This document shows positions 11,852 to 52,040 of a DNA stretch of 64,000 nt, piece after piece; within the stretch, counting starts at the first letter, position 1; each line of letters begins with the position of its first letter. A model generated the notes under the pieces. The model worked only from the letters and a program-made list of their open reading frames with translations. It ran no database searches and was not told the DNA's origin. Source of the DNA: Chara braunii (lineage: Eukaryota; Plantae; Charophyceae); the NCBI GenBank assembly GCA_003427395.1, contig BFEA01000011.1:1135912-1199911 (forward strand), written 5' to 3'. The position numbers were made by a program, and so were the translations under genes.

Positions 11852-11900
<49 letters not shown>

Positions 11901-15312: not shown

Positions 15313-15353
15313 GTGTGTTTCATCCCGTCGAACTCATCAGTGGCGAGATACGC
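15313..15353 (-). ncRNA. Hammerhead ribozyme type III (catalytic boxes intact, stems drifted)
   Basis: Minus strand GCGTAT-C-TCGCCA-CTGATGA-GTTC GACG GGAT-GAA-ACACAC. Confidence 0.7.
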
Positions 15354-16277: not shown

Positions 16278-16318
16278 GAGTGTTTCGTCCCGTCAGACTC
16301 ATCAGTGGATAGACTCAC
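16278..16318 (-). ncRNA. Hammerhead ribozyme type III (intact core and helix II)
   Basis: Minus strand GTGAGT-C-TATCCA-CTGATGA-GTCT GACG GGAC-GAA-ACACTC; GUC cleavage triplet. Confidence 0.8.
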
Positions 16319-16907
16319 CCAAAAATAAGAGACACGGTGGCACCGATGACAGTAGACGCCTGGGGGTAACCGAATGCTCTTCCACGACCATGGTAGCCTG
16401 TACGATGTGCCACACGCCGCCTCGTCGCTGCTCAACTCCCTACAAGGGCTAATGAAGATGTAGTCTCCGCAAAACAACTTAAATACTCTACGACGCGCTT
16501 GCGAGAATGACGCACTCCCTCGTGCCAATGCCGCAAAGCCAGTCCGTCGAATTCCACAATGCCGAACAATTATGCGTGTTTTGTCTCGCCGAACGCATCA
16601 ATGGCCAAACACGCCCAAAAATAAGAGACACGGTGGTACCAATGACAGTAGGCGCCTATGGGTAACTCAATGCTCTTCCACAACTATCATAGCCTGTACG
16701 TTGCGCCACACGTCGCCGCGTCCCTGCTCAACTCCCTACAAGGGCTAATGAAGATGTAGTTTGCACAAAAAAACTTCAACAGTGTACGATGGTCGTGCGA
16801 GAATGACGCACTCCCTCTCGCGAACGCCGCAAAGCTGGTCCGTCGAATTCCATACCACCCACCTAACACACTTGCACACAAAGAGTTGTGCAGTGTTGAA
16901 CAATTAT

Positions 16908-16948
16908 GCGTGTTTTGTCCCGTCAAACTCATCAGTGGCCAGACATGC
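16908..16948 (-). ncRNA. Hammerhead ribozyme type III (G12>A, probably inactive)
   Basis: Minus strand GCATGT-C-TGGCCA-CTGATGA-GTTT GACG GGAC-AAA-ACACGC; retains the palindromic TGGCCA helix I. Confidence 0.7.
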
Positions 16949-17066
16949 CCACAATAAGAGACATGGTCGCACTGATGGCAGCAAATGCTTGGGGGTAACC
17001 CAATGCTCTTCCACAAGTATGGTAGCTTGCATGTTGCGCCTGTAAGCTCCGCCAGATTGGCAATGT

Positions 17067-20000: not shown

Positions 20001-21072
20001 TATGGTCATCTTTTTGAAAAGTCCAACGATAACATTCCAAAGAGATTAGTATGAGGGGTTACACAACATCTTTATGTGATTGCAGTCTTGCATGACGGTG
20101 TGGCAGGCGGACATAGATTTGCGCGAGTCACATTGAAAAAGATTGAGCATCTTTATTTTTGGGAAGGGATGAGCAAAATGGGAAATGATTTTTATAAATC
20201 TTATCTTCCTTGCCGAAGACGATCTAATGTGTTTTTGTTGAGTCTCTTAATCCACGTTATGTAGCCGAGCCAGGAGTTGTGGTCCACCTTGATTTATTGC
20301 TCATACCGCATGGGTTAATGGGTACAGATATATCTTTGATGCAAGGGATAATCTAACTAGGTTCGTTGATCGCTGTGCCATTCACGAACGTACTGGACAG
20401 GTTTTAGAATGCATCAAAGAATTTTATCTCCGGTAACCGTTTGTCCGAAAATTTGTTATGGATCAAGGTGGTGAATTCCGGGTTGGGGAAGTACAGGTAC
20501 TCGGAGTAAGCTTTAACTATACTACAAGGGCACATCCCGAAGCGAATACGCTGGTTGAACGCGGACATGCCACTCTAACAAATTTGTTGGAAAAATGGAG
20601 TGTGGATAAACTGTCCAGATGACCAATATATTTGAGAACGTCGTTTTTTGTTAAAAATATCACTATTAAGCGAACAACTAGGTATGTTTCAATCACATTA
20701 CGTTTTGGACAGTATGCAACTTTTTCGATCAAAAGTTTTTCGACTAATTGGTGGAAACAAGATGTGGAGACCGAAGAAAGGGTTGAGAAGACCCTTGCGT
20801 CTACTGCTGATAGTAGATGAGCGGATAAGGAACAATGGAACAAACAACCTCGTATTCGTAAAAAATCGTTGGAAGTTAGAGATATTGTTCTCCTTTATGA
20901 CACGTCGTTGGAAAAACAGTGGTATCGAAAATTGGATAGTCGATGGTTGGGACCTTACCGTATTGTTAAAAGATCTGAGCATGGGGCCTATAAGATTGAA
21001 GAGATGTATAAGAATCGAGAGCGAAACTATGTATTAGCATCGCATTTGCGAAAATTCATTTCAAGGGTGTGA
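17067..21072 (+). pseudogene. pol: Degenerate Ty3/gypsy pol (protease-RT-RNase H-integrase)
   Basis: Protease-like ALADDG...VLLGRSFL; RT GPYGSFWLCFIKPNSILRWVQDL and SPYIDD (~18615-18632); RNase H IIETDAG; integrase HDGVAGGH...YFWEGM..., HPEANTLVERGH; GPY/F RWLGPYRI; many stops and frameshifts. Confidence 0.92.
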
Positions 21073-31759: not shown

Positions 31760-34700
31760 TCAGACGAATCGTACCAGATCTAAGTGGACTACGTGCGCAC
31801 GACGCGTATGTTTCCACTTCTTTGTCTGGCGCTTGGGTTTCTCAGGAATTCTGGGACTTAGAGGGTGTTTTTTCCCTTTCTTATGTCGCAGCCGTTTGGG
31901 CTTTGATACAGGAGTATCCCTTCTCTTCTTCCTTCGTTGGAGTGGTCGTGCACCAATTGTGTCACCTCTTCTAATGCGGACTCTGCGCTTAGGTCTTTGT
32001 AGAACAAAGACCCATTTCCTTTTCCTACCTAGCGTTAAGCCCTTCACTTTTCTTGTCCCTAGTCTCTTTCTCTTCCTCGAACTCTCACCTACCTCGAACC
32101 GTCTCGACGGTCCTTCGTCTGCCGCCTTAGCTTTTCCTTTTCCTCTAGCGTCTGATAGCGTTGGCGCAAGAGTAGGAGTCTCTTTTGGCCTAAACAGCTT
32201 CAGTCTAGCCCCAACCACGTGATCTTTCCACCTACTTCCGTCTTACTCCGCGATCATATAAGCTCCCCAGCTCAGCGCGCCGACAACGCGGTAAGGTCCC
32301 ATCCATCTGTTAGCCAGTTTTCCTGTCCATGTCCTCTCTAGTGCCGCGTCGTAGAGGAGCACCATATCACCGACTTTAATCTTTTCTTTTCTGATTCTGA
32401 CATCTTGATCCCATCTCACTTTGCCTTTCTCTCTTTCCACCGCCAGTCGATTAGCCGCAGTCATGAGATTATCCTCTAGTTCGTAAGCTATCTGTCTAGT
32501 CCTAGCTACCAGTAACTCTTCTTGTGTCATATTATCTGCCTAGTCAATTGTAGTCCAACTACCAACGTGAAACTCTATGGGTAGAGGACAGTGCCTTCCA
32601 AACCATAGAGTGTATGGTGGGTACCCTGTGCTGGCTCGAACTGTGACATTGTCCGCCCAAATCACATACCGAAAATATTTCGGTCAGTCACTATCCCTTC
32701 CTCGACACCACTTGGACAGAGATGCTATCAATCACTGGTGGCCTCGCTCTACGGGCGCATTGGACTGAGGGTGATAGGCAGTAGCTATTGATACTCTAGC
32801 TCCCGCTTTCTTGAATACGCTCTGGACCTCATATGCTAAGAACTCCGCTCCTCTTCCCATCACAATCTTACTGAGACACCCATATCTAGACAGATATTCC
32901 AGGACGAAGTTCTTGACTTCTTTTGTGGCCTTTGTTCTGATAGGCTTTCCGTCGACAAACCCCGTAAAGTCATCTCTGATGTTCACTACATAATTCATGT
33001 TCCCCACACCCTTCGGCATTTTCACCAGATCAATATGTACTTTCTCTCCAGGTCCAGTGGGATATGAAGGATGAAGTGGCTCCTTATATCTGATAAGGGA
33101 TCTCTTCTGACAATCCTCACAAGTCTCGCAGTACTTTTCGACAACCTTGTACTTTCCTTCCCACCAGTATAGTCTGCGAACCTTCTCATGCGTCCTTTTT
33201 ACTCCTCTGTGTCCCCCAACTACACCGTCATGTACCTTTGCTACTATGGACTGCTTCTCCTCCGGTTCACAGATCACCCGAAGAGGCATCCCCGCTCCCA
33301 CAGGTCGGTGGAACAGATGCCCAACTCTAAGGCAATACTGCGCTGCCTGTCTTCTAATCTTCGAATCGGAGCTCTCCTCTCTTGACAAATGCAGTCCTAT
33401 ACTGCGGTACTTACCTCCATAGAGATTGACTAGGAAGCGATCCGCTCGTCTAGGCTCAGTCATAGTGAGTGCAACAACTGCTATCGGTCGCTCCGCCTCA
33501 ATCGGAATTCATGAAAGTCCGCCGGCTACAGCGTTCTTTGTTCCTGAGATCCTTTCCACAGTATAATTGTAAAGTCGGATCCTGATCAGCCAACGCGCAA
33601 TCGTAGGATCCGTTAGACTGAAGTCCTTCTGTAAGACTGACGCTAGAGCTGTTGGGTCTAACCGAAGAACGAATCGTCTTCCGTATATGTAATGCCTAAA
33701 GGTGTCTAAACACCGTAGGACAGCTAAAACCTCCTTCTTAAACTGATTTTAGTTGCGTTCAACAGTGTTGAGCGTCCGAATTTCGAATCTCAGCGGTCTC
33801 TCCTTACCTTCGGCGTCCTTCTTAGAAAGTAATCCTCCAACCCGAACACGACCCAACATCCGTGGATACTATGAATGGCCTATTAGTCTCGTCCTCGAAA
33901 AATGGTACGCTTGGGATTCTTCCTCCCTCTTTAAATTCTTCCTTAAGGGTTTGTACCTCAAGCTCCTGTGGAGAATCCCAACAAAATCTTTTCGTCTTCC
34001 TGAGCAGATAGCACTATGAAGACGAAAAGATTGCACTATGAATGGCCTATTGCATGAGTGTTAGATGCCTATCTCTCGGATCTTGCGGTATCTCATCATA
34101 CCCAGAAAATAAATCGCAGACAGAATAAATAGATTTGCCTGTTGCTCCTTCTGCTAAGAGATCAACGTGCGGTATGGAGCGTACATCTCGAATAGTCACA
34201 ACATTGACCTTCTTGAGGTCTTGAATCCACCGAATCTTCCCATTAGGCTTCCTTTAGAAGAACCATCTATTCGCTTATGCGCTATCAGATGGCTCTGCTA
34301 CATGTGACGTAATCTTCTCCTTGAGAAAGGAGATCACTTCTTCCTTCTCTTTCTGAGCAAACTTTCACCCTGCGTCATTCCATGAAGTATGCGGAATCGT
34401 GTAGATTCTAGCAGGCTTAGCATACCTAGGATCAATCCTTCCCCTTTCCGCATCACTAAAAGCTACAGCCTTGTCGCAGGTCTTAAGAACTTCCAGCACG
34501 CGTGCCTTCTCTTGCTCGGTCAAATTCCCATTTCCTATGTCCATCTCCGCTATCCTCTTTTCTGTCAGCTGTTGTGGCTCCTTTTTCTTCTTCTCTTTAA
34601 TCTCCCTAGTGATCTCTTCATCATACACACTATCTAATTCGGATCGCTCTCGAGCTACTGCCGCCGGCTTAACTTTCTGAGCTACTGTCTTGTGTCTTTT

Positions 34701-35935
34701 TGGTCGTCCCCCGTAGGGTGCTATGCCCTTAAAAAAAACACAGAGATCATTCCTCCGAATTCCTCATCTTCGGCCTTAGGAAAGGAGTTTCCTACCACAC
34801 GGACTCGATCGCCTAAGTCTTCAATCTCTACTATGCGCCCTTTTTCTTCCGTAAGTAACGGTCCATACTTCTTTTCGCGAAAGTTCAAGGAGCGACTCGC
34901 AAGGGTGACCGGCTTGCGGTTCCCTGCTGCGAGAACCACCCTGTTCCTCGGATCACGAGGCTCTACCGTCTCCATCATAATCCGCCCACCATCTGGACGT
35001 TTGATGGAAAGCATCAGGCTTCCATCCGGTCGCTCTATAGTAACTGCATGAACATGGCTTAACCATGTCCGCCCCAATAGTAACTCCGAGCTGCAATCTC
35101 GGACTGCGAACACAGGCATCAACACTCTCAATCCTTCGACCTCGATCGCCGCCTTGTGACAGCCCCCGGAGACTTTCTGCTTTCTTCCATCAGTTGTTTC
35201 TATCTTGAACTGGTATGACCTGTGGAGGTCCAGTCCCAATCGCACAACAAGCTCCTCATCTATGATGACAGCCTCGCTGCCATTATCAATTACAACATGA
35301 AGGACTACATCGACATTGAGTGTAGTCTGTACTGTCCCACTGCCTAGAATATAAAACTTGTCAGGAGGCACACCCTCCATTCCATCTAAGAACACTGTCG
35401 CTGCACGTTCCGCCTTAGCTACCACACCCGATACCGCTACAGAGGATAGTGCCTCATGTTTGGAAGGCATATGGACTTCATCGCTTAGAGGAATGCGCGT
35501 CTTTCATGTGATCATCTGCAACTCATCTCGCGCAGGTCTCGAGGCTGTCAAATACTCAAGTATCGTGCATTGCATTGGATGCCTAAGTGCGCGCCTGAGA
35601 GGCTCGACCGTGTCTATATCATCCAGAGTACTCTTCATTGTGAACTTTCTGGCTCCGCGCTTGCGCGGTGAGAGTATAACTTTCTCTCCTTCTATCCTCT
35701 GCTCATCCTTCTCTGTCATCACATAATCAGTGTCAGCCTTCTTAGAGGAGGACGCCCTTGCGGACGTAGTCGCCGCCACTCGTATAGGTGTCATCGAAGC
35801 CTCCTCATCAGAAGGAAGGCCCAACCTCATACTCTGGCTCCTTGCGACTCCCTTACCCTTACTTGGTTGTACCCGTCTGACTTCAACGTTCTCCTCCATC
35901 GAAGGGAACATCGATACATCGCCAAGGTTATCCAC
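31760..35935 (-). pseudogene. pol: Ty3/gypsy pol of element C: protease, RT (C-terminal half deleted), RNase H, integrase, basic tail
   Basis: VVIDNGSEAVII...LLLGRTWL; KPNGKIRWIQDLKKVN...CDLFSGYDEIP; RPLRFE...KEVLAVL; HDGVVGGH...CEDCQ, HIDL...RDDFT...YHPQSNAPVERGH; RWMGPYRV. No YxDD remains. Confidence 0.95.
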
Positions 35936-37825
35936 ACACTTGACGTACTTCCGATCATCAAGTACGACAAGTCCTTCATCTATTGCTCGCCAGAGGTCAG
36001 GGCAGTCCCTCTTTATGTGATCGTCAACCCTGCAATAGATACAAAAGTTTCTAAGAGTAGGGGGTCGCTCCTCCGCACTCCTAATAGCAGGCCGTCTAGC
36101 GTCCTGGTTAGAAGGTCCAGGAGATTTTGGATAGTTTGGGGACTTCGGGTAACTAGGCGACGCATGATATCCCCCTCGTTCGTACTCTCCGCGTGGTTGT
36201 TCCCTGCGACTTCCACCTCTTTCTGTCCGCTCATAACCACCGTAATATCCGTCACGGCGGTCCCTATCTGATTCCCATCGGTCGTGGGGGTCCTCTCTAT
36301 CCCTCGAATTGAAATTGCCCGGGCTCCGGTACCCTTCGGTGTTCCCTCCGTACTTGGGGCTGCGTGGGTACTGCTCAAATCTGCCCCCGCGACTAAAGGA
36401 GTCTCCTCCTCAATACCCGTCGCGTCGGCGATCTCTGTCTATGTCATCATCCCTTCGCCACCAGGTATCATCATCTCTCTCCCTCGCACGGTAATCCGCC
36501 TGTGTGCGAGGATTCCGATCCTCGACGCTCCTCCATGGGTCGGTGTTCCTATGGTCCCACGACAAAGAGTAGGGATACCCGGGCTTGTCCCGGTATGTAG
36601 TCGCCCCAGCCTTTGTCTCGAAATTAGCCATTTGCCTGGTCATTCCCTTCACCATCTCTCTTATCTCTCTCACCTCATCCATCATTGTTTCGCTGTCCCT
36701 CGACCGTTGTGGCCCGTCCCTGTCCATCAAATATCGCCGCTCTGCCCACCGCTGATCGTTAAAGTCTGGACACCTATCTGTCCCGTACTCCCGATAAAGG
36801 GAAAAGTCCCGACGCTGCATTCCCCTCCAGAGTAGATCCTTGTAATCATTAGCCTCAACCTTCATGGCCAATTTGAGCAAAGCGGTGAACTCTAACTTAT
36901 CGTGAGGTGTCTCTCTAAATACTGCCTTCTGTTTCCCTCTGGGTAGTCGTCCGAGAAAAATCGTGCACCTTTCGATTTCTGATTGCTTACCTCTCGCCAT
37001 AAGGGCATCAGAGACCTTCTAGAATCTCCTCCCAAATGCTTGGACACTCTCGTCCTCTCCCTGAGTCATCGCTTCTAAGTCTTGGATAAAATACTTGACG
37101 TCTTCCAGCTTAAAAAGTTCATAAAGGATGGCTTTGTATGTAGCCCATCTCCTATCCTTCGGTCGAGCTTCCTTTATAACTTGACTCAAACTCGGGTCTG
37201 TGTTGAACAAGAAATTGTCTATAATCTCGTCCTCCGACCACTGACTTCGGTAGGTATGCAACTCCCACTTTTCAAGGTATTCGGTAATACCGCATCCCTT
37301 GAAAACGGGAGGTCTGGTATCCAATTCTGAAGGCGGATGCGAGATGATGAACCTGTCTCTCGTCTCGTATGGCATGGAGTGCGATTCCCCCGTCTGAGGG
37401 TCAAAAATCTGTCTGGTCATCGCAACTCTCTCCCTATCTCTCCAAAGTTGCTCCCTAATGAACAGGTCCCTCCAGTGTTCTCTCCCTCGATCCTCTCGAT
37501 CGTCTCTTCGCTCATACGTGGGCGAGCGTCGAGTAATCGACTCTCTCCAAAAACTCGGCGGTTCGGTCTGACTCTCCACCCGTCCTACCGTAGCGGCTCT
37601 GTTTGGCTCCGGGACAACTGGATACTCCATTACCTCAGGCTCTTCGTCGTCCGGTTGTTCCATGCACCTCAAAGGGGCGTTTTGTCGGAGGCGCTCCTTG
37701 AGATCTTGCAGAGCACAGTCTGGTGATGCTCGGTACACAGCGGTCTGTTGTTCCTCGTCTAGACGCATTCCCATAGTATCAGATTCCATGTACTCAATCT
37801 CTTCCTCGACTGAATTTGTGGGCAT
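35936..37825 (-). pseudogene. gag: gag of element C with CCHC zinc knuckle
   Basis: ORFs 37825-37019 and 37000-36410 are in one frame across a premature TAG; PPVFKGCGITEYL and MTQGEDESVQAF capsid-type motifs; CIYCRVDDHIKRDC at 36043-36002. Confidence 0.9.
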
Positions 37826-37826
37826 C

Positions 37827-37901
37827 CCGGACCTGATGTCGAGACCGGCAGTCCGGACCTAATGTCAGAACCGCCAGCCCGGACCTAATGTCAGAATCAG
37901 C
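37827..37901 (-). repeat. Three 26-bp direct repeats directly upstream of the gag ATG
   Basis: CCGGACCT(G/A)ATGTC on the plus strand at 37827, 37853 and 37879. Confidence 0.85.
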
Positions 37902-37925: not shown

Positions 37926-38252
37926 CTAGTTCTCAACCGCTCCCAGTATCACTATCAATCTCCCACTCTCGTCTCGTATCTCGTGATTCCCCTCGACTCC
38001 CAGTATCCCAGTATCAAGGAAAAGTCGTCCTTCCTGTCTCTCTATACAGGCAATACCTCTCCTGACCTCCAACACTCCCGTCTCAGGACACCTGAATTCC
38101 CTACAAATCGCGCTCCGTATAGCGCGTAACTCCACACGACTACAAGCTCGCAACCACTCTCGCAGGTCAACAGATGTCCTCCTCTCCAGATCGCTCAACC
38201 CTTGCCGTACGACACCTGCCCCTGCTAACGGATACTCACCGCCTCTGGCCAT
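37926..38252 (-). CDS. Accessory ORF (108 aa from ATG, MARGGEYP...), unknown function
   Basis: Open frame, same sense as gag, ends 100 bp before the gag start. Confidence 0.5.
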   Translation of the reverse strand: MARGGEYPLAGAGVVRQGLSDLERRTSVDLREWLRACSRVELRAIRSAICREFRCPETGVLEVRRGIACIERQEGRLFLDTGILGVEGNHEIRDESGRLIVILGAVEN

Positions 38253-38366
38253 CAACCGCTTGACGCCGCAAGGCGCGTTCAATCACGGCGCCAAAGTTTA
38301 CTCTCTGCCCGATCCGATAAGGAATTGGAGATTTAAGATGGTCGAATCTCCGCTCATTCCATCATT

Positions 38367-38864
38367 TTATTCGTCCTTAGTTATCTTCTTGATCTTACCT
38401 TCAGTCCTAACTGTTCGAGCAAAATCGACTACCGCCTCCCATCCATTTTGCTCAAGTCCTCTATACGGAACAGGCGGTCTAGGCAGGCCGTCAAAAATCA
38501 TGATGTCGTTCCAGACCTCGACAATCTTCCCCAATCCTTCTAACCTCTTCTCCTCTTCTCTTAATGCTCACACTACCCTTCTCCAAGTTCTACCGTATAT
38601 GCAGAACTCCTCCCTCTCTCAGGGAAGATATATACCAACGTGGTATACTCCTAGATCACGAAACCGTATGGTCATAATATAGTATTGATTACGTTCAATC
38701 CCACTGTTCTGTACTCGATACTTAATCACTTCGTATGGGAAGACTTCACGCCTGCCAATCGCGCTTAACTCCCTAAGTACTCTCTCGTGCTCAGGCTCAT
38801 AAGGGTCACTCCAAACCCCAAATCTCCGTCTCCTCCTTGCTAGTTCCGCCTCCGGTAGTGACAT
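38367..38864 (-). pseudogene. Accessory ORF (~165 codons, two premature TGA)
   Basis: MSLPEAELARR...YLP*EREEFCIYGRTWRRVV*ALREEEKRLEGLG...KITKDE*; both internal stops fit CGA>TGA decay. Confidence 0.55.
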
Positions 38865-38879
38865 TTCTCATTCGCTCCC

Positions 38880-39377
38880 CTAACATTCCGCTACGATTAG
38901 TGCTAAAACCATCAAGACTCTGTCTGTGGATTCCTCCAAGAGCTCGTAGAACGTCTCGAAGTCGTTTATATCTCCAGAGTCTTCAATATCTGCTAAGGTC
39001 TTAAGATACCCACTCCAGTACTGGTTGTGTGCTTTAAAGATTCTAAGAACAGAACTTTCTACTATGATCTTTGCAAAATCTCCTGACACCTCCGTGTGAC
39101 TCCTTACGAGTTTCTCGGCCCTCCTAGGAGTCTCGCGCCACGCTCTACTCAAGGGCAGCCCATCGTAGGGGGACAGGCTCAATGAATAGTTGATCAAACG
39201 CGCGCTTTCCTCTCCTACCCAGAGACCGGTCACTCGCGCTTTCTGGACTGTGTCTCTAGTACACTCCACCTCTTCGTTCACGCTGAGTCTCTCTAGATGC
39301 ACCAATTGTATCACAAAACAAACGATTGGTCCTTTCGACCTCCCTACGACGTGCATAAAATATTTCTCAAGGCTCAT
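38880..39377 (-). CDS. Accessory ORF (165 aa), unknown function
   Basis: Intact ATG-to-TAG frame; start overlaps the upstream stop as ATGA at 39377-39374. Confidence 0.6.
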   Translation of the reverse strand: MSLEKYFMHVVGRSKGPIVCFVIQLVHLERLSVNEEVECTRDTVQKARVTGLWVGEESARLINYSLSLSPYDGLPLSRAWRETPRRAEKLVRSHTEVSGDFAKIIVESSVLRIFKAHNQYWSGYLKTLADIEDSGDINDFETFYELLEESTDRVLMVLALIVAEC

Positions 39378-39766
39378 TCTTTCTTTTCATTCTCCGTCGT
39401 CCCTTCAACATCCGTCCTTCTTCCCGACCTTGCAGTCTCTATCAACTCCTCTTTCCTTCCCGTTGACTCGAGCGATCCCTCATTACTATGATATCTCCTC
39501 TTGACGCTCTCTAAAAATTCTAGCCGCCATCTCCTGAAGAATCCTCTATCCTTTCTGAAAAACCTTTCCAACGTCTTCGACGCGCCTTCTATTCTACGCA
39601 ACTCACCCTTGCCCTTGTTGGGCCCGCTGTCTTGAATCTTGATACCAAGTTCCTTAATTCGTTCCGCCACTGGTTTTATGATTCGATCATCGACTCTCTT
39701 TTCCCTCTCTTCCAGATCTTTCATCACATGCGATCCATCTCCCTCTAAGCTTTGAGCGACTATCAC
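39374..39766 (-). CDS. Accessory ORF (~130 aa, highly charged, helical-looking)
   Basis: Open frame between two neighbouring accessory ORFs; start codon uncertain. Confidence 0.5.
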   Translation of the reverse strand: MIVAQSLEGDGSHVMKDLEEREKRVDDRIIKPVAERIKELGIKIQDSGPNKGKGELRRIEGASKTLERFFRKDRGFFRRWRLEFLESVKRRYHSNEGSLESTGRKEELIETARSGRRTDVEGTTENEKKE

Positions 39767-39798
39767 ATATTACTCTGAGCTTTTGTGGGCGTATCGTC

Positions 39799-40194
39799 TC
39801 AAATTATTTCTAAGCACACTTTTCCTTTAACGCACACGATCACCTCATATACCACCCAACTCTGCATTGTCAATTCCCTCAGCGCTCCTAGTCTCTGCTC
39901 CCGTAGGACATCCTCAACAAGTTCTTTGAACTCGCTGTCCGACAGTTCTTCTTCGACGCTCACCCTCAAGAGAATCTGTAGAGTTTCGTTGTCACACACT
40001 AACTGCCTTGAGACAACTCGAGCATATGGAAGTCGTCCCAGAGAAGAGAGGCGACTCGTCTCTCCTCCTCGAGTAGCCACTCGGGGATTCCTGTCGCTCT
40101 CACTCCTCCAGGAGTCGGATCCCCGGCGATCCCACCGGAGCGAATACGAAGCTCGGGGCCTATATCGATATAATTGTTGCTCGTGTTCTGTCAT
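39799..40194 (-). CDS. Accessory ORF (131 aa), unknown function
   Basis: Intact ATG-to-TGA frame starting 16 nt after the previous stop. Confidence 0.55.
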   Translation of the reverse strand: MTEHEQQLYRYRPRASYSLRWDRRGSDSWRSESDRNPRVATRGGETSRLSSLGRLPYARVVSRQLVCDNETLQILLRVSVEEELSDSEFKELVEDVLREQRLGALRELTMQSWVVYEVIVCVKGKVCLEII

Positions 40195-40210
40195 GGCAAG
40201 GCGGATCGAC

Positions 40211-40492
40211 TCATACCCTACTCCTAGCTTCCGCTACCGTCTCATCAAAAAACAACTCTGCGCGTAAAGACCCGACGGACCATACCATCACCTCATACGT
40301 TATCTTAGTTTGGAAGGTTACGCATTCGAGAACTTCTGGTCTGTACTCTCGAATAAATTCTCGGGCTTGTAGAAAGTTCCCCTACTCTGTCAGGTTGTCG
40401 TCTATGTGCGCTCTGAGTAGGACAGTAATCGTGAAACCTTCGTTCACTAATTGCCTGCTTACATTAATCCCCGTAGTCGTCCGACCTGGCAT
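40211..40492 (-). pseudogene. Accessory ORF (~93 codons, one premature TAG)
   Basis: MPGRTTTGINVSRQLVNEGFTITVLLRAHIDDNLTE*GNFLQAREF...EARSRV*; ATG 8 nt after the P3 stop. Confidence 0.5.
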
Positions 40493-40500
40493 CCGTTCTG

Positions 40501-41157
40501 CTAACTATGCACAAACAAGTATCTCAGTTCCTCCAGCCCGACGTACTTGTCCTCTACGGGCCTACGACAATAGTAAATCAGATCCGCAGGTCTCAAACAA
40601 TCTACCCAACAGGTAGCGTCGATCAAGTCTCTCCGCGTCTCCTCATCCGGGGGTCCCCACCCTACGCAGACCGCGTAGTATGCCTCTCAGAATCGAGGCG
40701 CTAGTCCCAACTAGAGCGCGTGCAGAGTATGGTTGACTGCTTTCGTCAAGCAGTCTACACTCCCGTAAGTTTGTTCTATGACAAACGTGGGTAAGACCAT
40801 CCGCCAGCTCTCTACTGGATGGTAAATCAAGTGAGGAGGGCCGATCACAACTCGGGCGGTGAAAGGTCTGTCTCTCGCAATGCACGCCAGTCGTCGTCTC
40901 ACTATCGCCTCTGGTAAGGCCTCATATCTCCACCAGGCTCTGCTAACACCTGCAAGTGTCAGCTCTATCTCTATATCCCGTGTCTCATCAAACACAAGAT
41001 GTCCTATTCCCTCCAATCGTCGGGGAAATTCGAACCCTCTATCCTCTGTAATCACTGTCCACAAGAAAACCCCTGCCGCCAGCCAAGTGCCGTAATGTTG
41101 AATCGGCACACAAGCTACTTCCTCTAAGCGTATCGGGAGTGGCACATCGTATCCCAC
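40501..41157 (-). pseudogene. Accessory ORF P3 (paralog of P1/P2)
   Basis: ORF 41157-40711 reads through two stops to 40501; GIGHLVFD..., VLPTFVIEQ and YYAVCVGWGPPDEETRRDLID align with AIGHIYYS..., RLPAFVVEE and EYAQFIGGPLTGERGLQLIE of P2. Confidence 0.65.
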
Positions 41158-41399
41158 TGCCGTCTCTAAGTCCTACCAGTTTTCTCGCCCTATAAGATTC
41201 CGATCCACGTGTCAATACATATGCCAACCATACATCCACATCACTCCTCATCACACCATTCACCTCTTTCTCTCTCCTTCCAGCTCACTCATACTCATCA
41301 AACTGCGCTAGTCCCTCACGGCGTCTGCCATATCCACATCTCCATCCTCATCTACCCCCTGTCTCCAAGGGATAGCCTCCTGTCCCTCGGCTTGAGGAA

Positions 41400-42964
41400 C
41401 TGTGTATCTTTTGAACGCCGAATGGGCGGAATTCAACGCCCGTTCATCTGTTCAACGGGCCCCTGGACCTCCGTTGAATCGCGTTTAATGTGAAAACGGG
41501 GGCGTCGCGTCGAATTCCGAAAAGCGGAATTCGACCGTTGGGCCTCGGACAAGTAGATCTATGGGCCAGAACACTAAAAACAGTAAAAAAAATAAAAAAA
41601 AGTTGACCCCTATCAACAGTGTGGGGTCGCCAAACTTGCCCATCCCTTTCGAAAATCGAACTCCAAACGAACCCATTCAGTCTTTTTTTTTTTTTTTTTT
41701 TTTTTTTTAGAGTTGCCCCCCCCGACGATCGGCAGCTCATGCCCTGTCTCTTATACACATCTAGATGTGTATAAGAGANNNNNNNNNNNNNNNNNNNNNN
41801 NNNNNNNNNNNNNNNNNNNNNNNNNNNNNNNNNNNNNNNNNNNNNNNNNNNNNNNNNNNNNNNNNNNNNNNNNNNNNNNNNNNNNNNNNNNNNNNNNNNN
41901 NNNNNNNNNNNNNNNNNNNNNNNNNNNNNNNNNNNNNNNNNNNNNNNNNNNNNNNNNNNNNNNNNNNNNNNNNNNNNNNNNNNNNNNNNNNNNNNNNNNN
42001 NNNNNNNNNNNNNNNNNNNNNNNNNNNNNNNNNNNNNNNNNNNNNNNNNNNNNNNNNNNNNNNNNNNNNNNNNNNNNNNNNNNNNNNNNNNNNNNNNNNN
42101 NNNNNNNNNNNNNNNNNNNNNNNNNNNNNNNNNNNNNNNNNNNNNNNNNNNNNNNNNNNNNNNNNNNNNNNNNNNNNNNNNNNNNNNNNNNNNNNNNNNN
42201 NNNNNNNNNNNNNNNNNNNNNNNNNNNNNNNNNNNNNNNNNNNNNNNNNNNNNNNNNNNNNNNNNNNNNNNNNNNNNNNNNNNNNNNNNNNNNNNNNNNN
42301 NNNNNNNNNNNNNNNNNNNNNNNNNNNNNNNNNNNNNNNNNNNNNNNNNNNNNNNNNNNNNNNNNNNNNNNNNNNNNNNNNNNNNNNNNNNNNNNNNNNN
42401 NNNNNNNNNNNNNNNNNNNNNNNNNNNNNNNNNNNNNNNNNNNNNNNNNNNNNNNNNNNNNNNNNNNNNNNNNNNNNNNNNNNNNNNNNNNNNNNNNNNN
42501 NNNNNNNNNNNNNNNNNNNNNNNNNNNNNNNNNNNNNNNNNNNNNNNNNNNNNNNNNNNNNNNNNNNNNNNNNNNNNNNNNNNNNNNNNNNNNNNNNNNN
42601 NNNNNNNNNNNNNNNNNNNNNNNNNNNNNNNNNNNNNNNNNNNNNNNNNNNNNNNNNNNNNNNNNNNNNNNNNNNNNNNNNNNNNNNNNNNNNNNNNNNN
42701 NNNNNNNGCGCGGGTTTTTTATTTTTTGTTTTAACAAAAAAAAAAAAAAAAAAAAGGAATCCATGGGGTGGTACCCAACAACACGCACTACCACCCCACA
42801 CCTTTGGAAAACCCCTACCCCCCGCCCCAAACACGCAGAACTTGGGTTCGCGGACCCCGTTTATTCGCGTCCAACGCGCGTTTTAACGGGGATTGAACGT
42901 GAATTCAACGCGCGTTCAGTTTTTCAACGCGGAACCCGCGTTGAATCCAGTTTCGGACACACAG
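41400..42964. mobile_element. MITE, hAT-like (contains an assembly gap)
   Basis: Termini CTGTGT...ACACAG; 8-bp TSD TTGAGGAA / CTGAGGAA; TTCAACGC/GTTGAA subterminal motifs. Confidence 0.8.
41744..41778. other. Nextera mate-pair junction adapter (assembly artifact)
   Basis: CTGTCTCTTATACACATCT+AGATGTGTATAAGAGA (Tn5 mosaic ends back to back) at a contig end. Confidence 0.98.
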
Positions 42965-44127
42965 CTGAGGAAGATGTCCTCAGCCGTCCTCCAGCTGCGC
43001 CTCTCTATCGGCCAACTCTAAATCTCCCCAGCCCTGGTCCCGGTCGCCCCAAGGCTTTACCTCATCTAAGTCCTCTCACTCTCTATCCTCGGCGCACCAC
43101 CCAAGGTCGTCGGTGTCCGGGTACAGTCGTTGATAATGCTCCTCAACCTCCCAACTTGGAATGAGCTGGCTCGGTCTCCCCTCGCGAGCCTCAGCGAATA
43201 GCTCCCCCACTCCAGCTAGATAAACTGCAGGTCTCTACGCCTCTCTCTCTAGCGCGGTCCAGAAGTCTAGGGGCTGGTATGGATAAAAGGACTCCTGGTC
43301 TCCTGAGGGTGCTAGAGCCCGTATAAACTCTATAAGCTGGAGTCCTCTCTCCCCCGTAAGGGGTCCTCCGATAAACTGTGCGTACTCAATCCAATCACTG
43401 TCCTCTAAACCCTCTCCTCAATCCGTCCAACTCAGACTAGCAAAATACGTCTGAGTGATGTGGGTCAGAGCCCAGAGCTCCTCCACTACAAATGCAGGAA
43501 GCCTCACTCGCAGTCGCACAGAGGGGAACGGGAAGGCTCCTCCGATCCGGAGGGTCGTCCTCGTCGCCCTAACTGAACCATGCAATCCCTCAGTATCAGC
43601 ACGGACGCTATCTACCTGACCGGATAAAATCGCCCTAGCCTCCTGCTCACAGCGCCAAAACCTATGCGCCAATCCCTCAAAATATATCGTGGCCCTCACC
43701 GAGTACGAGTAATAAATATGTCCTATAGCCTCGATACTCGTCGTCCCCGACGCTTGCCAGTGTTGACTGTCCAGCTCGTAGGTCTCAACCACGTACGCCT
43801 ACAGGTGTACGTCTGGCCCCAATCGTATCGATCTCCAAACGCTATAAAGCCTAGGCTCAGCTACGCTCCTGGCCGGTAGATCGAACTTTAGCACGTCGGG
43901 CACCACGGTCTCAGGGGGCCTAGGCCATCTAGCACTACCGATCGGGAGCTCCACTCTTTCGACCTGATCTATCATCGGATCGCGCTTTGCTGCCAGCCGA
44001 CACCAATGGCTAAGCCCACTCAATCACTATTCCTAGCACGTCTCCTCTGCGCACCGTCTCCTAAGTCCGGACGGTAACCCCTATCCTGGGAAAGTGGGCG
44101 TCGGTAACGTCAATCTCCTCCTCCGAC

Positions 44128-44480
44128 TCAGTGCTCTCGCTCTCGGAGCCGATCAGGCTCCAAGGCCTCCTCGTCAGTGTCCCTGTCCCACCCCTCGTCG
44201 TCGAACTTGTCCTCTACGAGGTATGGTGGAAGACCTATGGCCAGATAATAATCCGTCAACTGATACTCAGGTATCAGTGTCCTAATCTCGTCACTCCACC
44301 TGCTCCACCAATTGTCCAAAAAGAGGAGGCATATACACTTAATGTACTCGGGCCCTGCTCGGAGCTCTCGGTCCAACAAGTCCCAAGCGTACGAGGGAGT
44401 CCCCCACTGGAAATCAGCCCCGTGTGGTGCTATCGAACGCATCAACTCCACGAGCTGCACCCTCTCGTCTCGCCTACCTA
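44128..44480 (-). pseudogene. Accessory ORF P1, C-terminal half
   Basis: ERVQLVELMRSIAPHG...YAWDLLDREL...EYIKCICLLF aligns with ERGLQLIEFIRALAPSG...DFWTALEREA...VYLAGVGELF of P2; lacks the N-terminal half found at 2394-3084. Confidence 0.65.
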
Positions 44481-44482: not shown

Positions 44483-46419
44483 GTACTGGGTCTTTGGGAA
44501 TGCCAACTTTGTCTTCTTCTACTCGGCCTCGAGTATCAGGCACGTCCACCTCCACTTGGTATGACACAGGCCTAACTGCTACCTGAGTGTTTTCCTGCTG
44601 CAGCCCTCCAAGCCGTGGCCATAGGTAAACACCGTCGTGTCGGGCCGCTCAAACAATCAGGTGTCCCTACGGGACACACGCACAGACTCGCGGGTCACAC
44701 ACACGCCCAAGCCGACACGCATGCAGACCGGCATGCGTACACACACATAGACTTGGAAACAGACTCGGGCCACTAAGTGGGCTGAGCCCCCCCCCCGATC
44801 CTTTATATGTACTTGAGCTGCTCCCTTCCTAACCAGAATAGGAGCTAACTCAGTTGGTTTAGGTGCAGTTTGTTAGCGAAGGGTGCAGGGAACAAGTCCA
44901 CCCGACCCCTGAGTTATCTCATTTTGCAAGGAGCTCCTCAACGTTTTTCACCCGGGCTCAGTCAGCCAGGACTTGAACCCATGACCTCGAGAATGGGGTT
45001 AGCCGAGGTTAGACCCCGTTGTGATAGTTGGCACGACGGGGTAGTTAGCAGTTAAAATTTTCTTTTGTCTGTTTATTTATTAGTTAGATTTGATTTTTTT
45101 TTATTAGATTTCTATTATTTCATTATTATTATTATTATTATTATTATTCGTTTAGTTTTCCGATCCCGTAGCAAGACCCCACATACTCACCTTAGTGAAT
45201 CTGCACTAGATAAACGGGCAGATTCACTCTCACAAAATTTTGTTGTACTTCGAAAACGGCGTCCGAATGTCCGATCCGCGTACTCAGGCGGAGCACTCGT
45301 GTGTAGCAGCGCACGGGCAAAGAAACTCGCGAGGAGGGCAGCGCGCGGGAGTGCGCGCAGAGGTCGAGCGAGCGCGGGGGTAACATAGGTCGGCAAAAAG
45401 TGTGCATAAGCGAGCGCAGACAGAAGGGAGGGGCAAGGCGAATGCGGTCTCTAGAGTGAAAGAGAGAGAGCGTGAGGAGAGAAGAAGAAGAAAAGAAGAA
45501 GAAGAAGAAGAAGAAGAAGAAGAAGGGAGAAGGAGAAAAAGGAAGTAGAAGGAGGAGGGAAGAAGAAGAAGAAGAAGAGGGAGAAGGGAAGGGGATCCGA
45601 CGCGACGGGAAAGATCGTTGTAATTTTCGATCTTGAATGAGGATTGCCTAGTAAGCGCGAGACAAATCAGCTCGCGCTGATTACGCCCCTGCCCTTTGTA
45701 CATACCTACGTCGCTCCTACCGATTGAATGCTCCAGTGAAGTGTCTGGATTGCGGTGATCCCGGCGGTTGCCGCCGGGGGTGCATTGAAAAGTTCGTGAA
45801 ACCTTATCACGAAGAAGATGAAGAGGAAGGAGAAAGCGAGGGGATGCTTACTTGGCGACAGACGACGAAGACGACGGACTGACGACGAAGACAGGCTGAC
45901 GGCGACGACGGGTGGACGACGACAACAACGAAGCAATAGAGAGAGAACAGGTAGGCCTCCTACCACGAGATTTACTTTCTTAAACCAAAGGGAATAAATC
46001 TACCGATAGAACACGGAAACGTACATCACTACGTACGTGCGTGCATATACGTGGGTGCGTGCATGCGTATGCGTGAGTGTATGTGTATGTATATGTGTGT
46101 GTGAAGTAGGTGTGTAAGTGTTCCACCCCACGACGGACCTCACGATACTTTCACCGATAGGATGCACGAAAATTAGTGAATCTACCGCTAGAACATGGAA
46201 ATATACACTACTACACGTACAAATATGTGTGTGTGTGTGTGTGTGTGCGTGTGTGTGTGTGTATGAAAGAGGGAGAGGGATTGAGAGACCCTTACATGTT
46301 CGTCACTGGTCTCAATCGCAGCGGTCGGGCGATCAGCCCGAACACAATGCACCCCCCCCTTTGTCGACTGTATCGGACCAGAAAATGGCGAATATACGTT
46401 CATTATCTATTATTATTAC

Positions 46420-46455
<36 letters not shown>

Positions 46456-48720
46456 TATTATTATTATAGCGACTTGACATTAGCTACGGGCGTTGGTATG
46501 GTGTGCCAGAAAATGAGAATGGTAGCGGACGCAAGTAGGAAGATGGAGAGCGGGAGACATACGAGATAGCGCATGGGGGTAAACAGGAAAGACAGCGGGA
46601 GGAAGATGGTGACGTGCGCAGACGAGGGAGAGTGTGCGCACGAGGAGAGAAAGAGTAGGAGAAGAGAGTGGGCGAGCGGAATGACTAGCGCAGCGAGAGG
46701 AAGGAGGAATGCGCGATGCTAAGAAGAGTATGCGCGGTTGATGCGCAGAGGAAGAAGTGACAAACGCGCAGAGAAGAAGGATGATTGTGCCAACAAGAGG
46801 GAGGTGACCTCGGTCTAGGAGACAGCCACGAGGAGAGGAGAATAACATAGGAGAAGTAGAGGTAGAAGAAGAAGAAGGAGAAGAAGAAATAGAAGGAGGA
46901 GGAGAGAGATCGGAGAGGGAAAGAGAACAAGGAGGAGAGAGATCGGAGAGGGAAAGAAAGGGAGGAAGAGGGAGATCAGAGAGAGAGAAAGAGAGGGAGA
47001 TCAGAGAGAGAGAGAGGGAGAGAGAGAGAGTTCTTCTTATCCCTCTTCCAACTCCACCATCTCTTCCTCACCCTCTCGCTACCTAATTTCTCAGTACCTG
47101 CAGACTACGAGACAGGGAGAGATTCGTGACTTTGGGACTTGACGACATTTGGACTCAGACTCGACATTTGGATTGAGACATCGGACAAGGGATTATTTGG
47201 ACCTGTATCGAAGACTTGGTGTTGACGACATTCCCATCTATCCCCTCTTCTTCATCTATCCCCTCTTCTTCATCTATCCCCTCTTCTTCGTCTGATCCCC
47301 TCTTCTTCGTCTGATCCCCTCATCTTCGTCTGATTCCCTTCCTCTTCGTCTGTGTATGGCAAGACACGCGCATTCTTCCTGTGTAAGTGCCTGGCCCTTC
47401 ACACCATAGGACGATGATGATGCATGTTGGGGGCTGCACTGCAATATTGATTGTTCGAATCTTTGGTATCTAAGTCTCCCGCTGCGCTATCTTGTAGTGT
47501 GTATGAGAGGTCGGATCTTGTTCTGGTGTGCACCTTTACAATATCAAACATTGTGTGTGTGTGTGTGTGTGTGTGTCAGAGAGAGAGAGAGAGAGATTTC
47601 TTCTTCTTCCTCCTCTAAGTCCATCCTCTCTCCCTCACCCTCTCGCTGCCTGACCTCTCTGCTTCTATGGACTAAAAGAGAGAGAGAGGTCATACGAGCA
47701 TTGTACGAGACAAGAAGCCCAGGTGTGGCTGTTTCGTGTGCAAGGGTGCCGGGGTAGGGAGAGATTAGAAAGCTCATCGATATTGTGCGAGGCAAGAAGA
47801 CTAGCTGTGACCCCATTCTCAATTTCGGTAGGTGGTCGTTGCACAGTGGCCAAATCTTCTTCTCTGGATCGTCCCAAGTCATGAAGGACTGTTTGTTCCT
47901 TTGTGTGTTGTGTCGTTGATTTCGTGTTCCTACCCTGTCAGTTTCGTTTTGCTATGGGGCCGGCGGATCATGTTGCTGGTGGAGATTGGCTCGCATTTGG
48001 CATTTGCGAGCGCGCTCGTGCATGTGAGTGTGTGTGTGTGGGAGANAAAGAGAGAGAGAGATGGGGTACACGTGGCGGCTGTGTGTTAAGGGCAAGGCTG
48101 TGAACGATACAATAGACATACCTGATGTTCAAGAAGAACGACATCGATCGCTGTATGCCATACTACGGGAGAGCAGTTGTCATCACCTATGGTGTCGTAG
48201 TGTAAGACTAGATAGGATCTGCCACCTGTGGTCTAGGCACCAAGCGCCAGGTAGGACGTCGACATTGGTTCTTTGATAATGGTGATGAGACTATCCCAGC
48301 GTTGTCAATACTGAGTTTTACTGTGTTCCTACTAAGTGTGAGTGAGGGATCGAGTTTGAAAGTGATACAAGAAACGTATCTGGTGCTCAAGGCGAACGAC
48401 ACCAGCCGATATCTCCTTGAACCCCGGGAAAGCGGCTGGCGTCATCAGTGACATTGTAGGATGGCTAAATAGGACCTATCATCTGTAGTTCGGGCATTGA
48501 GCTCCGGATAGGATATCAACAGTGGTTATTTGTCGATAATAATGATGAGGCTATTTCAACATTGTTGATTATGAGTTTTTGGCGTGCTCTTATTTAGTGA
48601 AACTCGTGAAGCAATTATGCTGTTGGTTTGAGGTCACGGCTATCTGGTCGCACGTGTAGGATGTTGTTTGATATCTGAAGTTCGCTATCACTCATCTTCT
48701 TTACAATATTTTATTACTAT

Positions 48721-48806
<86 letters not shown>

Positions 48807-49321
48807 GATTGTCATTATTATTGCAGCCACCTGTAGCGTGGGTCTGTCTGGATTTCGCTATTGATCGTCTTTCGTGCGCTGACTGTCATCATCTCGGCAG
48901 TTTAGTAGTAGGCTAGAATAGGACCTTCAACCTGTAAGTCGGATGACAAGCCAGGGGGGATATCGACATTGTGATGATGATGATGATGATGATGATAATG
49001 TGAGGGCACTCACCTTGTATTGGTAATGGTCTGCATTTGTCGCTGATGTCGACAGTTGCATTGTCTTTTTGTAGCCTGTAGTAACTGTGTAGGAGTAGGA
49101 TAAGCGCTGAGCGCCAAGTGTGAGTATGAATGAACTAAACTCTTATGATGAGAGGAGAGAGCATGCTCTCCATGGACAATGGTTTTCAGTGCTACGAACC
49201 TCCAGTAGTGTATTATTAGTGCAAGGCTGCTCTCTGGACATGGTGTAACTATCTGGCTTTGAATATGTTGGTGTAATCTGGAAGTGTCATCTCGCTGTTG
49301 CTATTTTTCCCGGTATTATTA

Positions 49322-49383
<62 letters not shown>

Positions 49384-52004
49384 GTTAAATGCAAGGTAGT
49401 TCTCGGGCTAGCGTGGCATTTGTGAATAGGGGAACGAGGTTGTGAGTGAGGAGAAAAACGTACCTGGTGGAGAGGAGGCCGACATTGGTGTTGACATCAT
49501 CACTCGCTGATAGTCAAGTTGTCTGGTTGCTGTCATACTGCAGTTGTAGTGATAGGCTGTAGAGTAGATAGGGCGCCTGACGCCATTCAGAAGAGAGAGA
49601 GCTACATTAGGTTATGCTGTTGGTATTGCCCTGTTGAGCTTGGAAATTGACTCACGATTCTTCTGTATCATTCTCAAATGGATGGTTACTCGGTTCCATT
49701 GTGCTATCTGCTCTTGCTTTGACTACTCAGACTTCAGTGTGATTTTGCAACTTGGATTTTTGTGCTTCATCCACATTCATGTTCCTTGCATTTTTTTTAT
49801 TTTTTTTTTTAATTATTATTATTATTATTATTAGACTCATTTCATTTACACTTTTCATGTATGTAAACAGCAGCACAGCAAACCGGCGACATGCGCTCAC
49901 TCATATGCGCAGAGATATGGCTTCCGGATAAGAGTTCACTTCCACTAGCTATGGCGACTCACCAACTCACTGTTTACACACGCAGGATCACCTTGGATAC
50001 CCCGCACGCACGCAGTGAGACGTACGCGCGGTCATGATGAGATATGGTACCCATACAGTGCGCAGTCACATACAGTGGGCTCAATCTCACACGTTTGTGC
50101 ACATTCACACACGGTGTGCATAGTCATACACGGGAAATACACAAACAAACAGTGGTACACAACAAGCTACAAGTGGAACAAACCCAGACACTGTGACATA
50201 CACAGTCACAGTGGGACAGACACAAACTGTGACACACACGAGCATGCACCGTGACACAAAGACAGGGTAACGCACACACAAAGAGAGACATACAACACAT
50301 ACACTATGACACAGTGATACACGTTGTGACGCGCACGGTTGCGCCATGACCTACAGATGCATAGTGACGCTGTCACATACACCGCGTCACATACAGTGTG
50401 CACAGTTATACACGGAGGTACACGGTCGCCCATATACCCGGTGACACGACTGTATGCAGTAACGCAACTGCACAGGGCGATATGGGCGTACACAATGATA
50501 CGGTCACGCACGCTGTAACGCAGATGCAGTCACACTGGGACACGAGCATGGTCACACGCCACTTCGACTTCGGGCCTGCTACACACTTCCTCGCACAAGA
50601 TGCTGAAACGGCGCTTCCGCATGGTTTCTGCAGGAAAGGAATGAGTGGTTGTGCTCGGCCTCTTGATTTATATTTCTGTGACCCGTTGGTATGCTCTGTT
50701 TCCGTGGCCCACGGTGTACACAGTCCCAGACGCTACTTGCTTGACTCGACCGGACTGACAGGACTGGTACAACTGACTCTGCAAGGTGGGACGCACATAT
50801 ACCTTGTGACAAACTCGCAGACAGTGACAATCACAAGGACCCAGCGAAATACAGTCACACAGAAACTGTGACACAGTGCACTGTCACGGTGCACAGGCTT
50901 TACGCAGCCACACGTAGACTGTGATACGCTGCCGACACAGACGCAATCACTCTGTGACACGTGCGCATACACAGATACCGTGTGACATATACGAAGTACC
51001 GTGGCGATCACACAGTCACACGCACAGGTACTCAGTGACACACTAACGCTGTGGGACATACACACTACACTCTACCAGCTACGGTCGTTGCCGCCTACTA
51101 CAGCTATGGCTAAGCTCTATCCTTCAGCCCACTTCAACCACGGGAATCTGCAGACCACCTTGTACAGCAACGCTTCCGCATGGCTCGCGTGGCAAAATCA
51201 ATGAATGGTCGGACGCTGCTCCCTTGATTTATACTTTTGATTCGTTGTTGGCCTGCCCTTTTTCACTAGGCCCTTGTGCACACAGTCCCACATGGCACTT
51301 GTTGACTGAGCTAAGAGGAACTGGGACTGGGTACGGCGGACTTGGCAAGGGTAGACTCACCCCATGCTCACTTACCTCTGGTCTACTGTGCGCAACGTTC
51401 AAAGAGACTACTTTGGACCTCCCGGAAGTCTGTGGATCCGGCTTTTGGAACTGCAGCGGTTACGACTTTACCTTCCACCGTCACACTGTGATGGACGCAC
51501 AAACGCAGTGAAAAATATACGGTGACACTCAGGTACACAATGATACAAACACACAACTACACGTGCACGGACATATGGATACACAGTCACGGTAGCATGA
51601 CATCAACGACGTACACAGATACGGTGATATAGGCCAACCCCGTGACACTTACACAAACATTGTGACGATCGTACATACACAATGACATACCTACACAGAT
51701 ACACTAGGGCACTGGGCGCCCAACAGAAAGGAGCAACCTAGAATGATGTGTTAATGTGGCCCATGGGCACGAGTATTAGATCATTACTTCTTTATGGTGC
51801 CCTTTTTGACGAATTCTGGCGGCTACTGCGCCCTGCCTTTACATCTCTATTCGGACATCTGTGTGATTTCGCAACTTGGTTTTTTGTATATCGCCACGCT
51901 CGTATGCCTCGCAATTATTATTATTATGGTTATTATTGCTATTATTATTTATTATTATCGTTATTATTGTTATTTTATTATTATTAATTTTATCATTATT
52001 ATTA

Positions 52005-52040
<36 letters not shown>

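Follow-up and report, generated by a model that had tools for sequence, protein, structure and literature searches.

The subject of this analysis is a 64,000-nt window of the Chara braunii genome (assembly GCA_003427395.1, contig BFEA01000011.1, positions 1,135,912 to 1,199,911), a repeat-rich stretch with several N gaps, and in particular a Ty3/Gypsy retroelement on its minus strand. Read in the sense direction, the element consists of a long terminal repeat (LTR), a tract resembling a primer-binding site (PBS), nine same-sense open reading frames (ORFs), a 26-nt tandem repeat, gag, and regions for protease (PR), reverse transcriptase (RT), RNase H (RH) and integrase (IN). The nine ORFs ahead of gag, designated P1 to P3 and O4 to O9, had been proposed in the initial annotation, and all were found on the minus strand, at the proposed coordinates or close to them. 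Positions below are those of the window, and the features of the element lie on the minus strand.

The 5' LTR (44510–44940) is 431 nt long, has TG...CA ends and carries a TATA-like box at 44807; its four leader AUGs are short and in weak context. A PBS-like tract (44490–44505) presents TGG 4 nt past the LTR. The bases after TGGCAT differ among families, an unusual feature for a strict tRNA primer site, and the LTR end together with this tract (44499–44552) is common to many other families and attracts most of the RNA reads. A second LTR copy (59878–59445) differs from the first (44940–44510) by 5.3%; around it (59409–59878), the PBS-like tract is retained together with the next ~35 nt, with divergence thereafter.

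P1 (44128–44442) encodes 104 aa. The main part of P2 (42967–43975), a member of a family of proteins of ~367 aa, is separated by an insertion (41400–42966) from its acidic C-terminal tail and stop codon (41308–41399), which were recognized by a match to the homolog profile (E ~1e-7). P3 (40501–41298, ~260 codons), O4 (40211–40492, 93 codons) and O5 (39799–40194, 131 aa) come next, followed by O6 (39374–39766), which opens at a GTG at 39766 and has its first ATG at 39724. O7 (38880–39377, 165 aa), O8 (38367–38864, 165 codons) and O9 (37926–38252, 108 aa, with no internal AUG) complete the series, all three in one frame. The 26-nt repeat (37821–37896, 2.9 copies) stands directly before the gag ATG and contains motifs resembling branch points and AG acceptors. 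Common to many contigs, it shows very high contig depth and a variable copy number, which suggests a cis-element shared across families. The gag region that follows (35504–37825) is decayed and has a zinc knuckle, the capsid/gag Pfam match being found in its homolog P0011, and pol (31760–35503) has the Pfam order PR-RT-RH-IN. Behind the integrase lies, in frame, a long and very basic C-terminal extension (31760–32242) with no Pfam match. Neither a 3' LTR nor a target-site duplication was found in the window, and the copy looks 3'-truncated.

Tiling of the block and decay of this copy

With the insertion at 42966–41400 removed, the ORFs cover 4569 of 5122 nt (89%). In a test of how well the three frames can be tiled, the lowest-cost path through the two blocks cost 8.5 and 21.5, compared with 15.5±1.9 and 44.1±3.6 in dinucleotide shuffles (z -3.6 and -6.3), and none of 100 shuffles per block was as low. 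Under the same shuffle test, the antisense strands and the LTR gave no significant path. Codon usage is a weak test here: the score favors the ORF frame in six of the nine ORFs, with the antisense frame scoring higher in O5, O6 and O7.

Several of the junctions are tight. The spacing is 9 nt between P2 and P3 (where the P3 start is uncertain), 8 nt between P3 and O4, 16 nt between O4 and O5, and 15 nt between O7 and O8, and the ATGA in which the O6 stop overlaps the O7 start (spacing -4) is confirmed in this copy. The initial annotation had counted gaps of 8, 16, 32 and 15 nt among the tight ones; three of these stand, but the 32-nt gap between O5 and O6 runs to the GTG, and 74 nt separate O5 from the first ATG. 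The remaining spacings are 152 nt (P1–P2), 114 nt (O8–O9) and 100 nt (O9–gag). Four of the nine junctions are thus firmly tight, or five if the P3 start is accepted, and the probability of at least four in nine is 0.004–0.013.

The copy in the window is dead, and its gag-pol is decayed as well. Five of the nine ORFs (P1, O5, O6, O7 and O9) are stop-free, and the other four hold ten premature stops (five in P2, two in P3, one in O4 and two in O8), P3 also having frame breaks at its 5' end. Each homolog covering the five P2 stops has residues opposite them, as does the O8 homolog opposite both O8 stops. Both O8 stops and one P2 stop are sense codons in most of the covering contigs from sister copies; the other seven lie outside the best-supported sister differences, which were the ones examined. 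The insertion within P2, previously taken for one miniature inverted-repeat transposable element, has ends resembling terminal inverted repeats and an 8-bp duplication with one mismatch, and it includes a 929-N assembly gap. A palindromic junction at 41745–41778, which we take to be a transposase library (mate-pair) adapter, borders this gap as an assembly artefact within the insertion. Insertion-free copies are evidenced by sister-contig joints at 41399–42995 and 41391–42965 (the empty site), and the P2 homologs continue through the insertion site.

Conservation, selection and duplication in the family

Homolog searches were aimed at P2 and at O7, O8 and O9. Among 2858 candidates, seven stop-free P2 homologs were found (GBG65634.1 is an example), all of them C. 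braunii hypothetical proteins on different scaffolds; they are 53–56% identical to this copy and 81–88% identical to one another, and they terminate at the same point as P2. Mismatches between P2 and these homologs have a mean BLOSUM score of -0.12 to -0.30, compared with -0.69±0.13 under simulated neutral drift (500 simulations, in which a lineage gains 5.4 stops and 0.2% remain open). For O7 to O9, an earlier word-index search of 2493 candidates had returned no homolog of 30–266 aa, a result overturned by an index-free search against 1.84 billion representatives, which gave eight matches. Five are gene models of C. braunii, placed on different scaffolds, in which an O7 homolog (four near-full at 41–42% identity and one partial) is N-terminal to the gag/pol of this family, itself 48–79% identical to the gag-pol of the window. 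A sixth, also a C. braunii gene model, contains a fragment of O8. The last two, stand-alone proteins on short ENA contigs, match O8 (161 aa, 45%) and O9 (109 aa, 44%), the latter coinciding with O9 at both start and end. The O7, O8 and O9 homologs align over 109–159 aa with 0–1 gap at 41–45% identity. P2, O7, O8 and O9 are therefore conserved at the protein level, a check on which the original claim depended. Viral and metagenome scans gave nothing for O7, P2 or integrase; one P2 match (L001), a prokaryotic-looking and presumably HD-type ORF, had been selected by the search motif and was discarded.

The same gene models could be taken to mean that a single extended Gag polyprotein is encoded, with the ORFs as its exons or recoded segments, since all five fuse an O7 homolog to gag/pol and O7, O8 and O9 share a frame. 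This reading is very unlikely. The models join O7 to gag at five different points (37735, 37291, 36394, 36229 and 36079), as is expected from intron prediction over decayed copies. In addition, the O8 and O9 homologs are stand-alone and of the same length, the P2 homologs end where P2 ends, and a listed sister difference in the terminal codon of O8 keeps a stop.

Sister contigs provide a second line of evidence. They come from four DNA runs of one sample, which is counted as one genome and is possibly the source of the window. In one run (X1), 2801 contigs align to the region, 179 of them at least 99% alike and 2173 less than 95% alike, and they cover 27 of 30 bins, the three empty ones falling within the N gap. 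Contigs diverged by 8–15% pass over O6/O7 (347 nt, 53 differences, no gaps), from O7 into O8 (676 nt, 103 differences, 7 gap letters) and over O8/O9 (317 nt, 24 differences, no gaps), and others bridge the O9–repeat and repeat–gag junctions. The block is accordingly present in sister copies and is a family trait, not a one-off; the isolated capture that would have undone the earlier claim was thus not observed. That claim, of a Gypsy lineage with an uncharacterized accessory set 5' of gag, is upheld by the homologs, the sister contigs and the lack of any family match. In a window that is a nest of repeats, where neither the 3' LTR nor target-site duplication could be identified and contig depth is far higher at P1 and the LTR end than at O4–O9, one might suspect that the block is an independent or nested element, or the product of a single capture, with an unrelated LTR on one side and gag-pol on the other. 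With O7 linked to the same gag family at five other loci, overlapping diverged contigs running from O6 to gag, and a Gag-related segment inside O5, we regard this explanation as highly improbable.

Relationships within the block point to how it arose. O4 and O5 are paralogs (32% identity, E 2e-8, z 15), the shared domain forming the remainder of O5 after its first 40 aa; this N-terminus resembles a segment from the interior of Gag (58% over 31 aa, z 11). Weaker pairs are P1 with the C-terminal half of P2 and P3 with the N-terminal domain of P2 (z 4.3–4.8, hhalign probability 13–22%). In the paralog pairs, identity is 32–77% at codon positions 1 and 2 and 23–40%, near random, at position 3, a comparison somewhat biased by the protein-guided alignment. 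These similarities indicate that the nine ORFs grew partly through duplication within the block. O6 is supported by the tiling and by the gap-free diverged sister contigs at its junction with O7. Chance open frames in purine-rich non-coding DNA would agree with the insignificant synonymous bias among the listed variants and with the lack of a family or fold match. They would not produce the tiling, the codon-position pattern, the conservative substitutions or the near gap-free homologs at 41–56% identity. Already largely refuted for P2, O4, O5, O7, O8 and O9, this explanation has almost no likelihood left, and the anatomy of the element and the selection on its proteins are, in our judgment, very probably as described.

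Other repeats in the window include sequences related to the element. The stretch at 2394–3084 had been assigned to the element, an assignment that must be withdrawn: it lies on the plus strand and is weakly P2-like (hhalign probability 28%, E 6e-4), and it thus belongs to a different element. At 2589–3400 (+), two consecutive ORF pieces of this diverged element are found, with sequence from 3085 onward repeated at 55188–54590 (-). The first piece weakly resembles the N-terminal domain of P2 (z 4.5–5.1), and a P2-like gene may therefore exist in a second family. A microsatellite-rich unit of 10 kb occurs twice in inverted orientation at ~93% identity (3085–13358 and 44955–55188), with one end 14 nt from the LTR. 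Another, more decayed Gypsy pol, from protease to integrase, lies at 17046–21030 (+) and is 30–43% identical to the integrase of the element, and tandem arrays with units of ~300–334 nt and 161–162 nt occur at 14773–17040, 4750–5680 and 52786–53557.

Candidate modes of translation

The window thus contains a dead copy of a multi-copy Gypsy family, and in the reading that we consider probable its nine likely accessory genes would be translated from one full-length RNA. The support for non-canonical translation comes from sequence, in the first place from the distribution of AUGs. In-frame AUGs make up 8 of 1472 codons in the accessory ORFs, compared with 44 of 1886 in gag-pol (p=1.5e-5; p=0.005 against pol alone), and the P2 homologs have 1–6 internal Met per ~367 aa. 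Out-of-frame AUGs number 31 where 51 are expected under a codon shuffle, which ranks lowest among 64 trinucleotides; in gag-pol, 69 are observed where 68 are expected. The 1.83 kb that begin at the TATA-like box and close with the main part of P2 contain 10 AUGs, none with a purine at position -3 (all have a pyrimidine). Against a background of 0.56, this is the most extreme of 60 trinucleotides, and in gag-pol 63 of 117 AUGs carry the purine. The weak-context zone ends at a cluster of AUGs at the P2/P3 junction. Of the claim that the element is virus-like and non-canonically translated, the second half may gain from this AUG depletion and these weak contexts, but no envelope, movement-protein or clear transmembrane ORF was found to go with the first.

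A two-zone model, to which we give slightly better than even chances, could account for these features. In zone 1 (the leader, P1 and P2, up to P3), scanning ribosomes would leak past the few weak AUGs and be spread over P1, P2 and P3. In zone 2 (O4–O8), ribosomes ending one short ORF would resume initiation on the following one, at a spacing of -4 to 16 nt; the tight junctions there would suit termination–reinitiation. Gag-Pol is the weakest step. Because gag lies behind 66 AUGs, it would probably need an additional path of expression, for which the best candidate is a shorter RNA that makes use of the 26-nt repeat ahead of the gag ATG. Folding of the leader is ordinary (z +0.65), and that of the O9–gag spacer (z -2.0) is driven by the repeat.

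Alternatively, the ORFs could be real but mostly expressed from subgenomic RNAs, as in complex retroviruses, either by splicing from a donor just past the PBS or from internal promoters, the tight spacing then reflecting genome economy. A donor-like site is present at 44477, the branch-point and AG motifs of the repeat lie 7–33 nt before the gag ATG and represent two of the four such acceptors in the block, and both the number of AUGs ahead of gag and a zone 2 that is not AUG-clean would be in keeping with this route. Conversely, only two acceptors with a pyrimidine tract were detected in the block, whose strand is purine-rich. The donor-like GT has no aligned counterpart in the second LTR copy and shows no clear conservation, and the scarcity of AUGs in zone 1 and their weak contexts would be superfluous. 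Subgenomic expression of most ORFs appears rather unlikely. The RNA reads are uninformative on expression or splicing: two runs gave 68 and 408 on the region, mostly partial and on both strands, of which 1 of 476 was at least 99% alike and none had joints, and a third run gave none on a smaller stretch.

A number of observations weigh against translation of nine genes from one full-length RNA. Four of the nine gaps span 74–152 nt, and the tight junctions are not preceded by a consistent TURBS-like motif. The AUG tests were devised post hoc on one decayed copy, and under a synonymous shuffle the out-of-frame depletion weakens to z -2.5 (rank 6 of 64). Out-of-frame AUGs exceed expectation in O4 (6 versus 1.9) and O6 (6 versus 3.9), 30 of the 56 AUGs of the 3' block carry a purine at -3, and the O8 homolog has four internal Met. 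The O7 homologs start ~5 residues earlier, and the exact ATGA overlap may thus be restricted to one subfamily. None of the listed contigs spans the whole block, so that the joint presence of the nine ORFs in other copies is a reconstruction from pieces. With homolog searches confined to P2 and O7–O9, the support for P1, P3, O4, O5 and O6 consists of the tiling, the sister contigs and, except for O6, paralogy. The homologous gene models were selected for openness, which makes the substitution pattern the stronger half of the evidence for selection on P2. Finally, among the best-supported sister differences (the best 40 of 641 and the best 40 of 124), 19 of 50 are synonymous, compared with 14.2 expected (P=0.08).

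Accessory proteins and relationship to known elements

The accessory ORFs have no match in Pfam, PHROGs, NCBIfam or Rfam. A PDB sequence search, made for the P2 family and O7–O9, gave no match, and an Atlas search with P2 gave no usable one. Structure prediction, proposed earlier as a check, was of limited help: AlphaFold2 models of a P2 homolog (pLDDT 33.8) and of the O5 domain (pLDDT 59) were poor, and the latter had no Foldseek match at E<=0.001 and a best VIA Z of 4.4, within the range of common arrangements. A hydropathy scan found no clear transmembrane segment in the accessory ORFs (19-residue maximum 1.58, at the O5 C-terminus), which speaks against an envelope or a FAST-like fusogen, and no envelope-like or movement-protein ORF was found with Pfam and hydropathy. 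With low confidence, the proteins may be soluble host-interaction or regulatory factors and not envelope proteins. The acidic tail of P2 has 2–4 Trp beside Gly, with a WG/GW enrichment P of 0.03–0.13 over eight related sequences. Trp-Gly motifs have reportedly been found in silencing suppressors that bind Argonaute, and this tail could be a lead in that direction, albeit a doubtful one.

The assignment to Ty3/Gypsy is based on the order gag-PR-RT-RH-IN in Pfam matches (RT being partly deleted in this copy), on integrase matches to the Ty3 and foamy virus integrases, and on the LTR ends and PBS-like TGG. No Tat/Ogre aRH was detected: the ~80 aa between RH and the zinc-binding match of integrase have no RNase H match, nor does the sequence after IN. 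PMD, Transposase_28 and Athila ORF1 have no Pfam match, and the LTR is not very long. Pfam finds no chromodomain in the basic, possibly decayed region at 32242–31763. An Athila-type env-like ORF with transmembrane segments was not found, though a 3' ORF may have been lost with the truncated 3' end, and the hydropathy scan revealed no transmembrane ORF of the MDG1-type short ORF (sORF) 2/FAST kind. Membership in Caulimoviridae is contradicted by the integrase and LTR and by the lack of a movement-protein match.

One of the closest described systems, judged here from excerpts of the cited papers, is MDG1/412, a Drosophila Gypsy group in which an unspliced LTR-to-LTR RNA carries two translated pre-gag sORFs (PMC11952523). 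Both are Gypsy elements with conserved short same-sense ORFs before gag. However, MDG1/412 has two ORFs of 70–110 aa, one of them (sORF2) transmembrane and FAST-like, whereas nine of 93–367 aa and no clear transmembrane segment are found here (PMC11952523). The Ogre/Tat elements, which are non-chromovirus, are likewise Gypsy elements of the plant lineage with extra ORFs of unassigned function, some of them 5' of gag (PMC6431247, PMC6317226, PMC4408406). In contrast to the present element, with nine ORFs, a 431-nt LTR and no room for an aRH between RH and IN, Ogre has 1–2 extra ORFs, LTRs of 1.9–6.5 kb and an aRH. In those excerpts, the known pre-gag extras are 1–2 ORFs in Ogre (PMC6431247), Tat (PMC4408406) and MDG1 (PMC11952523). 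Plant LTR retrotransposons usually have one or two extra ORFs. A review of additional ORFs in plants covers mainly 3' ORFs (PMC7264820), and the main survey of extra ORFs used a floor of 250 codons (PMC6317226), at which seven of the nine ORFs would be missed.

Parallels for the proposed translation come from viruses. In rice tungro bacilliform virus (RTBV) and badnaviruses, which use leaky scanning, upstream ORFs are cleared of internal AUGs and have weak start contexts (PMC5902531). The same signature is seen here in the leader, P1, P2, P3b and O9, but not in O4, O6 or the P2/P3 junction, and as in those viruses the accessory ORFs precede the core polyprotein. Unlike them, with their movement protein, their lack of an integrase and two upstream ORFs over ~0.9 kb, the present element is of the LTR type and has an integrase, and its nine ORFs extend over 5 kb, the 3' zone retaining AUGs. 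Stop and start codons separated by a few nt, or sharing an AUGA, are also found in the TAV-dependent reinitiation of cauliflower mosaic virus (CaMV) and in caliciviruses (PMC5902531). No accessory ORF has a TAV match in Pfam, and no consistent TURBS-like motif was seen; reinitiation here is a candidate mechanism. For the 5' part, leaky scanning of the tungro/badnavirus type is a better analogy than CaMV TAV reinitiation.

The full-text literature searched, whose scope did not extend to the C. braunii genome paper, supplements or Repbase, contains no account of this family or of any similar series of ORFs. The LTR retrotransposon described here, whose set of accessory genes is unusually large, is real, conserved and apparently undescribed. 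A wider picture is possible, though we lean somewhat against it: charophytes may harbor a lineage of complex LTR retroelements whose nine-gene cassette grew in part through tandem duplication and the capture of a Gag fragment, is translated from one RNA by leaky scanning and then serial reinitiation, and includes a counter-silencing P2 with its WG/GW tail. If this is true, a eukaryotic operon-like array without precedent among those LTR retrotransposons for which a description was found has come to light. Several C. braunii 'hypothetical proteins' are annotation fusions in which these ORFs are joined to gag. Up to seven orphan protein families, unrelated to one another, may operate at the interface between transposon and host. 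The family would also offer natural sequences for testing serial reinitiation in eukaryotes. If the nine-ORF cassette is under selection, retrotransposons of one algal relative of land plants would have attained the gene complexity of complex retroviruses or pararetroviruses.

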